This document shows, one piece after another, positions 30,577-40,970 of a DNA stretch of 64,000 nt. Within the stretch, counting starts at the first letter, position 1. Each line of letters opens with the position of its first letter. A model generated the notes under the pieces. It was not told the origin of the DNA. It searched no databases and was given only the letters and a program-made list of their open reading frames with translations. The position numbers were made by a program, and so were the translations under genes. The DNA is taken from the NCBI RefSeq assembly GCF_055900595.2, contig NZ_CM148325.1; one strand, written 5' to 3'.

Positions 30577-31154
30577 GAGTTCCCCACGTCAGCGGGGATA
30601 AACCTTGCTCGATGCGGGCGTTAACTTTTTTATAGGCGAGTTCCCCGCGCCAGCGGGGATAAACCGCGTAATTTTGTACGCTCAACACGTAACTAAATGA
30701 GTTCCCCGCGCCAGCGGGGATAAACCGATCACCAGTGCGGATTGTTCAAATAGTGCCTGGAGTTCCCCGCGCCAGCGGGGATAAACCGAGAGCTATATCG
30801 CAGCGTTTAACTGGATGACAGAGTTCCCCGCGCCAGCGGGGATAAACCGGTGTTTTTTGCCATCTGAACTGTGGCACGCCGGAGTTCCCCGCGCCAGCGG
30901 GGATAAACCGTCTATAATGTCTCATCCGGGGTTAATTCAATCGAGTTCCCCGCGCCAGCGGGGATAAACCGATCAGCCCCACATCCGGTTTTGCCAGCAA
31001 CGTGAGTTCCCCGCGCCAGCGGGGATAAACCGTAAGATGATCTCACGGAATTGAACGAACTACGGAGTTCCCCGCGCTAGCGGGGATAAACCGGACACAG
31101 AGCGCCGCTATAGCGCCTATGCCAAGAGTTCCCCGCACCAGCGGGAATAAACCA
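30577..31154 (+). CRISPR. Type I-E CRISPR array (CRISPR 2.3-like): 10 repeats, 9 spacers of 32 nt
   Basis: 29-nt repeat GAGTTCCCCGCGCCAGCGGGGATAAACCG at 61-bp period starting 30577, 30638, ... 31126; first and last repeats degenerate; AT-rich leader-like region 30240..30576. Confidence 0.95.
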
Positions 31155-34575: not shown

Positions 34576-34753
34576 ATCGTATTCCCATTTGTAATAGACA
34601 AAAAAAAGAGAAAAGTAAGCCGCCCTTTCAGGTGGATTACTTTTCTCAGGTCTCTAGTAATTGCAATAAGAAATAACATGGAAAGCAGTGGTGTTGTGTG
34701 AGAGTAGTCACGCTTCTGCTTTTTAAAATTATTTGATAATACGAATATCACAC

Positions 34754-34769
34754 TGTGATTACGATCACA
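34754..34769. promoter_or_regulatory. Consensus CRP box TGTGA-N6-TCACA
   Basis: TGTGATTACGATCACA exact consensus half-sites, centred about 30 bp upstream of a TAAAAT -10-like hexamer (34791..34796). Confidence 0.6.
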
Positions 34770-34826
34770 TTAGCGCTTATGCCCTTATGCTAAAAATTAT
34801 CTCCAGTTACCAGAGATAATGAGAAA

Positions 34827-34869
34827 GGTAACTTCCCTCTCGCGGGGGAAGTTACCTTTCTTTTTTTTT
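34827..34869 (+). terminator. Leader intrinsic terminator (attenuator) upstream of ygcW
   Basis: 11-bp perfect stem GGTAACTTCCC / GGGAAGTTACC, 8-nt loop, then TTTCTTTTTTTTT; sits 25 nt before the ygcW RBS. Confidence 0.65.
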
Positions 34870-34893
34870 GCCTTACGGAAATTGGAGCTAACT

Positions 34894-35679
34894 ATGTCAA
34901 TCGAATCTCTCAATGCGTTCTCAATGGATTTTTTCTCCCTGAAAGGTAAAACCGCAATTGTTACTGGTGGGAATAGCGGTTTAGGCCAGGCATTTGCCAT
35001 GGCACTGGCAAAAGCAGGCGCAAATATCTTTATTCCTAGTTTCGTTAAAGATAATGGCGAAACAAAGGAAATGATTGAAAAACAGGGGGTTGAGGTGGGC
35101 TTCATGCAGGTGGATATCACCGCAGAAGGCGCGGCGCAGAAGATAATTGCCGCCTGTTGTGAACGTTTCGGCACCGTCGATATTCTGGTTAACAATGCCG
35201 GTATATGTAAGCTGAATAAGGTGCTGGATTTCGGTCGTGCCGACTGGGACCCGATGATTGACGTGAACCTGACCGCCGCATTCGAGTTAAGCTACGAAGC
35301 GGCAAAAATTATGATCCCGCAGAAAAGCGGTAAAATCATTAATATCTGTTCACTGTTTTCCTACTTAGGTGGTCAATGGTCTCCTGCTTATTCTGCCACT
35401 AAACATGCTCTTGCCGGATTCACCAAAGCTTATTGCGATGAACTAGGTCAATATAATATTCAGGTAAATGGTATTGCCCCTGGCTATTATGCAACAGATA
35501 TCACCCTGGCGACACGCAGTAATCCAGAAACTAATCAGCGCGTTCTTGATCATATTCCGGCAAACCGTTGGGGCGATACTCAGGATTTAATGGGCGCAGC
35601 CGTATTCCTCGCAAGTCCGGCTTCAAATTATGTTAACGGGCATTTATTAGTGGTCGATGGCGGTTATTTAGTGCGCTAA
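34894..35679 (+). CDS. ygcW: Short-chain dehydrogenase/reductase (deoxygluconate-dehydrogenase-like)
   Basis: ORF from MSIESLNAFSMDFFSLKGKTAIVTGGNSGLGQA... with TGGxSGxG Rossmann motif; GGAG RBS at 34885. Confidence 0.85.
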   Translation: MSIESLNAFSMDFFSLKGKTAIVTGGNSGLGQAFAMALAKAGANIFIPSFVKDNGETKEMIEKQGVEVGFMQVDITAEGAAQKIIAACCERFGTVDILVNNAGICKLNKVLDFGRADWDPMIDVNLTAAFELSYEAAKIMIPQKSGKIINICSLFSYLGGQWSPAYSATKHALAGFTKAYCDELGQYNIQVNGIAPGYYATDITLATRSNPETNQRVLDHIPANRWGDTQDLMGAAVFLASPASNYVNGHLLVVDGGYLVR

Positions 35680-37203: not shown

Positions 37204-37296
37204 TGTGTCAGGCAGCGTTTCGCGATGACGGGGCGTTGTCTTTTCGGCTTCTCAACAGGGAAGCCGTTCTTATTACCGGACAATGAAGGGGTAAAG

Positions 37297-38634
37297 ATGA
37301 ACACTTCACCGGTGCGAATGGATGATTTACCGCTTAACCGTTTTCACTGTCGAATTGCTGCGCTGACTTTCGGCGCACACCTGACCGACGGTTATGTTCT
37401 CGGCGTCATTGGTTACGCCATAATTCAGCTTACACCCGCCATGCAACTGACGCCGTTTATGGCGGGAATGATCGGCGGCTCGGCGCTACTTGGCCTGTTT
37501 ATCGGCAGCCTGGTTTTGGGCTGGATCTCCGACCATATCGGGCGGCAAAAAATCTTCACCTTCAGCTTTATGCTGATTACACTCGCCTCGTTCCTGCAAT
37601 TTTTTGCCACCACGCCAGAGCATCTTATTGGACTGCGCATTTTGATCGGCATTGGGCTGGGAGGCGATTACTCAGTAGGCCACACCTTGCTGGCTGAATT
37701 TTCTCCGCGCCGCCATCGCGGTATTTTGCTGGGCGCTTTCAGCGTGGTGTGGACCGTAGGTTATGTGTTGGCAAGTCTTGCCGGACATCACTTTATTAGC
37801 GAAAGCCCCGAAGCCTGGCGATGGTTACTTGCATCGGCGGCATTTCCTGCCCTGTTGATTACGTTGTTACGTTGGGGAACGCCAGAATCGCCACGCTGGC
37901 TACTGCGCCAGGGGCGTTTTGCAGAAGCTCACGCTATCGTGCATCGCTATTTTGGTCCCCATGTTTTACTGGGCGATGAAGTGGCAACGGCGACCCATAA
38001 ACACATCAAAACCTTGTTCTCTTCGCGCTACTGGCGGCGCACGGCGTTTAACAGTGTCTTCTTTGTCTGCCTCGTGATCCCGTGGTTTGTGATTTATACC
38101 TGGCTGCCAACTATCGCCCAGACTATTGGACTGGAAGATGCGCTGACTGCCAGCCTGATGCTTAATGCGTTGTTAATTGTGGGCGCGCTGCTGGGATTAT
38201 TTCTGACGCACCTGCTGGCACATCGCAAATTTTTGCTGGGAAGTTTTTTGCTGCTGGCGGCAACGCTGGTAGTGATGGCCTGTTTGCCTTCTGGCAGTTC
38301 ATTAACGCTGCTGCTTTTTGTTCTCTTCAGCACCACCATTTCGGCAGTCAGTAATCTGGTGGGCATTTTGCCTGCGGAAAGTTTTCCTACTGACATTCGC
38401 TCGCTGGGTGTCGGTTTTGCCACTGCCATGAGTCGGTTGGGGGCGGCGGTAAGTACTGGCCTGCTGCCGTGGGTGCTGGCGCAGTGGGGAATGCAAGTCA
38501 CCTTATTGCTCCTGGCGGCAGTGTTGTTGGTTGGTTTTGTTGTGACCTGGCTATGGGCACCAGAAACCAAAGCACTCCCGCTGGTGGCGGCGGGAAATGT
38601 AGGAGGTACGAATGAACATTCTGTTAGCGTTTAA
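37297..38634 (+). CDS. ygcS: MFS transporter
   Basis: Multi-pass membrane ORF; start taken at MNTSPVRMDD. Confidence 0.8.
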   Translation: MNTSPVRMDDLPLNRFHCRIAALTFGAHLTDGYVLGVIGYAIIQLTPAMQLTPFMAGMIGGSALLGLFIGSLVLGWISDHIGRQKIFTFSFMLITLASFLQFFATTPEHLIGLRILIGIGLGGDYSVGHTLLAEFSPRRHRGILLGAFSVVWTVGYVLASLAGHHFISESPEAWRWLLASAAFPALLITLLRWGTPESPRWLLRQGRFAEAHAIVHRYFGPHVLLGDEVATATHKHIKTLFSSRYWRRTAFNSVFFVCLVIPWFVIYTWLPTIAQTIGLEDALTASLMLNALLIVGALLGLFLTHLLAHRKFLLGSFLLLAATLVVMACLPSGSSLTLLLFVLFSTTISAVSNLVGILPAESFPTDIRSLGVGFATAMSRLGAAVSTGLLPWVLAQWGMQVTLLLLAAVLLVGFVVTWLWAPETKALPLVAAGNVGGTNEHSVSV

Positions 38635-40394: not shown

Positions 40395-40970
40395 TCAAAG
40401 CAATTTTTTCGCTAACGTCCAGACCCCGGTATTCGTGGTAGAAAGCGCCACTACACCGGCGTTAATCGCATTACGCGCATCTTCTTCATCGCACACCAGC
40501 CCGCCAGCAACCAGCGGCTGGTGGATTTTCTCCGTTACCCAGCCCAGTACTTTAGGCATACAGCCTGGCAGAATTTCAATACAATCCGGGTTCGATTGCG
40601 CAACCTGTTTATCAATGTTGTGAAATGAAATCGAATCAACAATAAACAAGCGATGAATACAGAAAAAGCCTTCCGCTCTCGCCGCTTTTAGCATTGACGC
40701 TTTGGTACTGATAATGCCGTCCGCCTCGGTCACCAGTTTCAGAAACTGAATTACTACTTCTTTATTTGACGCGCCTTCCAGCAAATCGACATGAATAAAA
40801 GCATATTTTCCGGCGTTCTTAATCTTTTTGACGATATGACTGATGGTGCAAATATTGCCGTACAACACGGAAATAAACCGGCATTCAGAGTCGATTGCCA
40901 GTTGCAGGCTGGCATTGTCTTTAACGGCAGCAATCACCGGATTCTGGCGGAGCAGGTGTAAGAGGGGCAT
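40395..40970 (-). CDS. ygcP: GlpP-like (glycerol-3-phosphate-responsive antiterminator family) protein
   Basis: 191-aa ORF MPLLHLLRQNPVIAAVKDNASLQLAIDSE... Confidence 0.8.
   Translation of the reverse strand: MPLLHLLRQNPVIAAVKDNASLQLAIDSECRFISVLYGNICTISHIVKKIKNAGKYAFIHVDLLEGASNKEVVIQFLKLVTEADGIISTKASMLKAARAEGFFCIHRLFIVDSISFHNIDKQVAQSNPDCIEILPGCMPKVLGWVTEKIHQPLVAGGLVCDEEDARNAINAGVVALSTTNTGVWTLAKKLL

Follow-up and report, generated by a model that had tools for sequence, protein, structure and literature searches.

The region considered here is the spacer between the divergent genes ygcW and yqcE in a 64,000-nucleotide stretch of E. coli DNA (the window). The spacer is identical to that of a dog isolate and 98-99% identical to that of K-12. 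On the plus strand ygcW opens the ygcWUSRQ operon, and on the minus strand yqcE is followed by ygcE. Further along the window lies ygcP, which encodes a full-length GlpP-family protein. The first-pass annotation of this DNA, made from the sequence alone, had named yqcE, ygcW and a GlpP-like YgcP nearby, and all three assignments are correct. The features on which the following sections draw are, in window coordinates:

34600..34647, minus strand: intrinsic terminator of the yqcE leader, GAGAAAAGTAA...TTACTTTTCTC (34647->34608) followed by T8 (34607->34600)
34651..34663, minus strand: conserved 5' motif of the yqcE leader, CAATTACTAGAGA, with a predicted start at ~34663
34670..34678, minus strand: extended -10 of yqcE (TGtTATTTC)
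34697..34712: CRP-like box 2 of the yqcE promoter (minus strand CGTGACTACTCTCACA), centre 34704.5
34754..34769: CRP box 1 of the ygcW promoter (TGTGATTACGATCACA), centre 34761.5, read directly
34788..34796, plus strand: extended -10 of ygcW (TGcTAAAAA), read directly
34803..34805, plus strand: predicted transcription start of ygcW, from promoter geometry
34804..34816, plus strand: conserved 5' motif of the ygcW leader, CAGTTACCAGAGA, of which 34805-34811 form the 5' strand of the antiterminator
34805..34833, plus strand: antiterminator hairpin, 7-bp stem 34805-34811 / 34827-34833
34821..34869, plus strand: intrinsic terminator of the ygcW leader, 19-bp stem and U-tract, from a terminator scan and folding
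34884..34896, plus strand: Shine-Dalgarno sequence (GGAG) and ATG (34894) of ygcW
40395..40970, minus strand: ygcP, GlpP family (PF04309), proposed trans-acting antiterminator

Two further observations concern the neighboring genes. Between queE and ygcE (30699-31093) there is a CRISPR array whose repeat, GAGTTCCCCGCGCCAGCGGGGATAAACCG, is of type I-E; the identical strain has it annotated as well. The ygcS ORF (37225-38634) has 469 codons for amino acids here, as in RefSeq for the identical strain, and 445 in the K-12 annotation, so the choice of start codon differs.

Two divergent control modules

In front of ygcW, the first-pass annotation had placed a CRP box, a -10 hexamer and a terminator with a competing antiterminator, and had proposed ygcWUSRQ as the regulated operon. 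This description covers half of the feature. On the opposite strand, yqcE is preceded by a CRP-like box, an extended -10 and a leader terminator that belong to it alone, and the intergenic region holds two back-to-back, mirror-image control modules. The proposal stands for the ygcW side and misses the module in front of yqcE; because of this twin, the regulated unit is two divergent operons, not ygcWUSRQ alone.

We consider the promoters before the leaders. Direct reading of the sequence confirms an exact CRP consensus at 34754-34769, and this box is the sole exact TGTGA-N6-TCACA in the 64-kb window, where 0.11 would be expected by chance. The site itself is already known. It was predicted by PhyloScan in 2007, a CRP ChIP-seq peak in ETEC H10407 has exactly the sequence of box 1, and Footprint-seq gives it an in vitro affinity of Kd ~1.7 nM. 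According to this literature the box is a genuine CRP site, being bound both in vivo and in vitro. A transcriptome study lists yqcE-ygcE as Crp-activated. Downstream of the box, the hexamer at 34791-34796 is located where it had been placed, with the letters TAAAAA rather than TAAAAT. Together with the TG at 34788-34789 it makes up an extended -10 (TGcTAAAAA), the TGnTA of which is kept in every species compared. The predicted ygcW start, 7-9 nt past the hexamer, is 41.5-43.5 bp from the CRP centre.

The same spacing recurs in the related loci described in the next section. On the ygcW side, a CRP-like box with 0-2 mismatches is found 41.5-43.5 bp from the leader motif in 40 of 40 leaders. On the yqcE side a box with 0-1 mismatch is found 40.5-42.5 bp from the motif, also in 40/40. 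Measured from the centre of the CRP box to the first base of the conserved 13-mer, the box lies 40.5-43.5 bp upstream in 80/80 leaders, with a distance of 41.5 or 42.5 bp in 75 of the 80, and the TGnTA extended -10 lies between the two. On comparative grounds the class II spacing originally suggested for ygcW is probable, with the distances to the -10 and to the leader start fixed in ~40 species. Both promoters are predicted to have class II CRP geometry, and the conserved RNA motif would begin at +1 or within 1-2 nt of it. The distance from one CRP box to the other varies between genera, from 57 bp to >300 bp, which indicates that the two modules are independent. Known class II CRP promoters (e.g., galP1 and melR) likewise have a CRP site near -41.5 that replaces the -35, and an extended -10. 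Unlike those cases, the present region has two predicted class II promoters placed back to back, 57 bp apart, with each feeding an attenuator.

There are other promoter candidates in the spacer. A SELEX study puts H-NS, RNA polymerase signals and other candidate promoters there. A sigma-70 candidate for ygcW (TTGACA-16-TGTGAT, from publication or scanning) has TTGATA in the window and is not kept in other genera. One for yqcE (TTCTCA-18-GATAAT, 34825->34796) shares sequence with the ygcW leader in reverse complement, and a transcript from it would have a UTR of ~220 nt. Either may be a minor promoter, and neither is adopted here.

Following the promoter, the ygcW leader carries a strong intrinsic terminator. 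The 11-bp stem first described (34827-34837 with 34846-34856) is present, with a TTTCTTTTTTTTT run directly 3' of it (34857-34869), but its length had been understated: the helix reaches 19 bp, pairing 34821-34839 with 34844-34862 around the loop TCGC. Folding of the 100-nt ygcW leader gives -42.3 kcal/mol (z = -7.1). Direct reading also bears out that AGTTACC (34805-34811) is exactly complementary to GGTAACT (34827-34833). The hairpin made by these two strands, with a 15-nt loop (AGAGAUAAUGAGAAA) that takes in the base of the terminator 5' arm, is the minimum-free-energy fold of the nascent ygcW RNA. The corresponding strands of the yqcE leader are ATTACT (34661->34656) and AGTAAT (34641->34636). 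The nascent antiterminators, at -6.7 (ygcW) and -1.4 kcal/mol (yqcE), are far weaker than the terminators (-34 and -22 kcal/mol, respectively), which argues that termination is the default and that read-through needs a stabilising factor.

Two other pairings in the fold of 34797-34896, one joining UUAUCUCC with the Shine-Dalgarno region and one forming a TTATCTC/GAGATAA hairpin, were rejected; in each the 5' partner lies upstream of the predicted start and is not conserved. There is also an ATG at 34819 in frame with ygcW, giving a 286-aa ORF (34819-35679) with no stop through the terminator. As the start of a leader peptide this ATG was discarded, since many leaders have CTG, CAG or AAG at that place. 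With regard to leader-peptide attenuation, the leaders compared contain no conserved short ORF overlapping the alternative structures.

The ygcW and yqcE leaders are copies of one RNA element, 5'-CARUUACYAGAGA-N3-4-GAGAAARGUAA...stem...U8. The two can be aligned from the 13-mer through the U-tract, and their hairpins match at the base, where a G-C pair of one copy is A-U in the other, a compensatory change. This intergenic region contains GAGAAARGTAA...TTACYTTTCT twice, as opposed to 0 times in 100 shuffles, and the covariance model introduced below scores the yqcE leader at 81 bits.

The Term-seq tables of Adams et al. (eLife 2021) contain two 3' ends in this region, present but unremarked, for K-12 in LB at OD 0.4:

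K-12 position 2900311, K-12 minus strand (window 34856): 40,640 reads, intrinsic score 15.8, Rho score 0.50 (not significant)
K-12 position 2900556, K-12 plus strand (window 34611): 1,557 reads, intrinsic score 11.4, Rho score 0.61 (not significant)

Once converted to window coordinates, the two ends fall in the 3' arms of the two hairpins, and these published data show that the hairpins mark Rho-independent RNA 3' ends in K-12. With 3' ends at both hairpins, transcription must start upstream of both. A start downstream of the ygcW hairpin, which had been raised as an observation that would count against the first-pass proposal, is thereby disposed of. It also follows that most transcription stops or is trimmed at the hairpins without inducer. 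Positions 34856 and 34611 do not fall in the U-tracts but within the lower stems, which are A/U-rich, and stop 6 and 3 nt short of the stem ends, so trimming or processing must be assumed; the positions suggest exonuclease trimming or cleavage of the long duplexes.

Conservation and covariation of the leader RNA

A search for YgcP relatives returned 46 loci. The divergent ygcW/yqcE pair is found in 41 Enterobacterales loci, ranging from Escherichia to Serratia, Rahnella, Budvicia and Limnobaculum, and 40 of these 41 (~40 species) have both leaders with the same order of parts. In all species both elements are located 25-35 nt 5' of the start codons. Across 72 distinct leaders the 13-mer is conserved, with T9, T10, C12, G15, A16 and G17 invariant, and the loop AGAGA-N3-4-GAGAAA (14-15 nt) is nearly invariant. 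Within E. coli the element is found at this locus only, and 4870 of 5063 genomes match it there at 99% identity or more; a third copy was found neither near ygcN, ygcP or ygcS nor elsewhere in E. coli. The element matches no Rfam family (best score 23.8 bits, against a gathering score of 100), and four related loci compared with Rfam give no match at the gathering level.

Both helices can be examined in the alignment. Among 74 distinct terminator sequences, 90% of the cells are paired, and compensatory change is seen in 12 of the 19 pairs. Many of the substitutions in the terminator turn A-U into G-U, so the pairing is kept only in the RNA of the sense strand. In the antiterminator helix 93.8% of the cells are paired, compared with 14-53% in controls with a slid partner, and three pairs have compensatory changes (GC/AU 47:26, UA/CG 47:24, and AU/GC 73:1), which perhaps represent ~3 independent events. 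The antiterminator helix is short (6-7 bp), and its outer A-U pair is absent in 28 of the 74 sequences. Part of the covariation could be indirect, given the similarity of its 5' strand to the terminator 3' arm. Read together, the compensatory changes lend support to the predicted terminator and to the 6-7 bp antiterminator helix alike, and the mutually exclusive AGTTACC/GGTAACT pairing that had been proposed for ygcW is one that such changes have kept.

Several spacers depart from the common layout. The spacer of Limnobaculum eriocheiris measures just 136 bp (L033:13853-13988) and holds one hybrid hairpin between A9 and T9; the promoters, CRP boxes and 5' motifs of both modules are gone. Recombination between the inverted terminators seems to have caused a deletion here; in a sister species (L034) the two hairpins do not differ as RNAs. 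In Citrobacter youngae (L012:16022-16472) and Klebsiella spallanzanii (L014:12366-12818) the terminator of the yqcE leader is separated from the start codon of the gene by an insertion of ~127 bp, perhaps a small repetitive element.

Linkage of the RNA element to ygcP

We now consider the protein. YgcP matches the Pfam family G3P_antiterm (PF04309) with an E-value of 6e-62, its residues 12-184 covering positions 1-173 of the 173 in the model, and it is homologous to the crystallised GlpP proteins PDB 3kts (1.2e-28) and 1vkf. In contrast to the BglG/SacY antiterminators, it has no CAT or PRD domains, and Pfam finds only PF04309. NCBIfam holds no model matching YgcP.

In 40 Enterobacterales loci ygcP is linked to the leaders; taken as simple synteny, this is weak evidence. 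A covariance model built from the enterobacterial leaders only finds the element in distant hosts as well. In Thalassobacillus, an element scoring 55 bits lies between ygcW and a divergent ygcP and follows a TTGACA-17-TATACT promoter (sigma-A). In Streptomyces clavuligerus (50 bits) it is located between ygcP and an operon for an SDR, an FAD-oxidase and an FGGY-kinase. In Enterococcus raffinosus and E. gilvus (42 bits) it is upstream of an MFS gene divergent from ygcP, and Enterococcus has a weaker copy between ygcP and an SDR gene. The RNA element is accordingly present in three phyla (Proteobacteria, Firmicutes and Actinobacteria). Classical glpP loci give no match with this model. In E. raffinosus an IS110 transposase gene (L049:7828-9057) sits between the ygcP-adjoining leader and the SDR gene; the ygcP-leader-SDR arrangement is uninterrupted in E. 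gilvus (L053).

A scan of metagenomes by the RNA motif alone returned 15 stretches, 14 of which are real, having both the hairpin and the U-tract; the remaining one (L058) has no hairpin and is a chance match. A YgcP homologue (41-55% identity) is encoded within ~1 kb of the element in 11 of the 11 contigs that are long enough to tell. The contigs with both element and homologue include some with a GC content of 0.65-0.68, at which an A/U-rich motif survives only under selection. Wherever the element is found, the only regulator gene that is consistently beside it is ygcP. Genes for DNA-binding regulators are sporadic (TetR/AcrR in S. clavuligerus, MurR/RpiR in Enterococcus).

In the searchable literature we find neither a leader terminator nor a YgcP target for ygcP, ygcW or yqcE. 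The twin leader RNA, the antiterminator, the spread over three phyla and the pairing with the YgcP subfamily are likewise not described there.

A proposed circuit, its rivals and its relatives

Combining the anatomy of the two modules with the linkage to ygcP, we propose that they are CRP-driven and that YgcP-dependent antitermination operates at both leaders, a proposal that as a whole we consider likely. Each module would comprise a CRP box spaced as in class II promoters, followed by a weak extended -10 (TGnTA) and then by the conserved 13-mer CARUUACYAGAGA. The transcript would start at the 13-mer or within 1-2 nt of it, and would meet the intrinsic terminator ~17 nt later. By default the terminator would form and short leader RNAs would be released, as in the Term-seq data from LB. 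For read-through, the 5' (A)RUUACY would pair with RGUAAY(U) in the terminator 5' arm, giving a weak antiterminator hairpin whose purine loop (AGAGA-N3-4-GAGAAA) would hold the base of the terminator stem. We infer that YgcP binds this hairpin and stabilises it. The loop includes the first bases of the terminator 5' arm, and a protein sitting on it would directly keep the lower stem from forming. The ligand carried by YgcP would be a phosphorylated intermediate; the analogy with GlpK and GlpP suggests that it is probably made by the FGGY kinase YgcE. RNA polymerase would then presumably read into ygcWUSRQ and yqcE-ygcE. With a CRP promoter and a YgcP-gated terminator in series, expression would need both cAMP-CRP and the pathway inducer.

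The reading that we favour is that the ~35-nt leader is the first defined cognate RNA (RAT) of a distinct YgcP subfamily of GlpP proteins. As for the earlier suggestion of catabolite control combined with YgcP antitermination, the anatomy, the CRP site, the terminator, the pairing and the ygcP linkage hold, and binding by YgcP and the nature of the ligand are still predictions.

Other readings of the same element have to be weighed. There is a slim chance that the leader is a very small, protein-independent riboswitch for a pathway metabolite, with YgcP being accessory or unrelated. The loop nucleotides that are invariant across three phyla, as well as the mutually exclusive terminator, would suit such an RNA. 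The candidate aptamer, however, would measure only ~30 nt, with one helix of 6-7 bp and no other conserved structure; a GlpP-family gene adjoins the element in every testable case, and the homologous glp leaders are known to need GlpP. Constitutive attenuators or stand-alone sRNA genes, producing stable RNAs of ~55 nt without conditional read-through, would fit both the very high stability of the hairpins and the abundance of the terminated ygcW leader in LB (40,640 Term-seq reads). We regard them as unlikely nonetheless, since a conserved and covarying upstream strand that competes with the terminator would have no role and the downstream operons would be left without a promoter; the location of both elements 25-35 nt before start codons in all species also speaks against them.

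It is similarly unlikely, in our estimate, that the trans-acting factor is not YgcP and is another RNA-binding protein or a small RNA, or that YgcP acts by terminating transcription or on mRNA stability. GlpP is known from the literature to stabilise the glpD mRNA as well, and the 3' ends inside the stems hint at processing. The linkage of ygcP to the element argues against a different factor, and with termination already the default without inducer, a terminating factor is unneeded. Hardly credible is a DNA operator, in which the conserved segment from +1 to +30 would be bound by a DNA-binding repressor and the hairpin would be incidental. The conserved block does abut the promoter, and the H-NS and RNA polymerase SELEX signals do lie in the spacer. 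Changes of A-U to G-U and the like, however, preserve pairing only in the sense RNA, and the sequence of the element is kept in hosts with a GC content of 0.65-0.68. Moreover, the element stands behind different promoters (in Firmicutes a sigma-A promoter, TTGACA-17-TATACT; in Enterobacterales predicted class II CRP promoters), and the sole regulator gene conserved beside it is ygcP, with DNA-binding regulators being sporadic. Added together, the four rivals are improbable, at a level that still deserves attention, and YgcP-dependent antitermination at both leaders is the reading with which we continue.

The closest known system is that of B. subtilis GlpP, which acts on the glpD, glpFK and glpTQ leaders and is of the same Pfam family and length as YgcP. 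According to reviews, GlpP with bound glycerol-3-phosphate binds the glpD antiterminator. The two systems have in common catabolic targets, an intrinsic terminator in a short 5' UTR, a kinase among the regulated genes that could make the inducer, and catabolite control layered on top. They differ in the host, which is Gram-negative here, and in the predicted use of CRP class II activation instead of CcpA. The targets here are an SDR, an FAD oxidase with ETF, an FGGY kinase and MFS transporters, with no glp genes, and this context makes it probable that the ligand of YgcP is not glycerol-3-phosphate. The RNA motif is also distinct, and occurs here as two inverted copies in one intergenic region.

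There is nevertheless an apparent likeness in layout, in that the leaders of B. subtilis glpD and of S. aureus glpF and glpD have AGUUA at the 5' end, then two repeats of the GAGA type and a short helix that overlaps the 5' arm of the terminator; this likeness was judged by eye on three leaders, to which the covariance model R1 gives no score. The 5' UTR of B. subtilis glpD (taken from a supplement) reads AGUUAAUAAGAACGGUCCUGAGAUGAGGAGAGACCAC..., followed by the terminator, and has a GGUC/GACC pair that brackets a GA-rich loop and overlaps the terminator 5' arm. The S. aureus glpF and glpD leaders (L056:5915 and L056:8494) begin with AAGUUAAUA and have GAGA...GAGA immediately 5' of the terminator. 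The same look is found in two leaders that adjoin glpP genes in Firmicutes. The S. aureus glpF/glpD and B. subtilis glpD leaders begin with AGUUAAUA, and those of the ygc type with (C)AGUUACY; the 5' start may be a family-wide recognition element. Rfam has no family for either leader type, classical glp or ygc.

With E. coli BglG, with SacY/LicT and with their RAT elements, the proposed system would share protein-dependent antitermination at a promoter-proximal terminator, and a weak antiterminator hairpin that overlaps the terminator 5' arm and needs the protein to persist. It differs from them in that YgcP is without the logic of PTS phosphorylation, and in its RNA motif, which has no relation to theirs. 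The purine repeats, invariant and single-stranded, have the look of a surface for protein binding, much as the NAG/GAG repeats bound by HutP and TRAP-type proteins. The likeness goes no further, and the proteins belong to unrelated families.

If true, the circuit would be the first GlpP-type antitermination system described in a Gram-negative bacterium. The 80 enterobacterial copies, together with those of the other phyla, lead to a definition of a GlpP-family target RNA in sequence and structure, namely a 5' (A)GUUAC strand, an AGAGA...GAGAAA loop and an overlap with the terminator. In the literature searched we found no comparable target definition for classical GlpP. The element is compact and apparently works behind different promoter types, and is a possible portable regulatory part. 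A role in antitermination is unsurprising for a protein already annotated as an antiterminator; yet the regulation of the cluster and its inducer become testable. The ygc/yqc genes, roughly ten in number, make up one of the conserved and uncharacterised E. coli clusters, and the two inputs of the proposed circuit (cAMP-CRP, and YgcP with its ligand) point to a way of switching the genes on, and hence of finding the substrate. The genes of the cluster are conserved to very different degrees: when Escherichia is compared with Citrobacter or Klebsiella, identity is 91-97% for YgcP, YgcW and YgcU, and only 59-78% for YgcQ, YgcR and YgcN.
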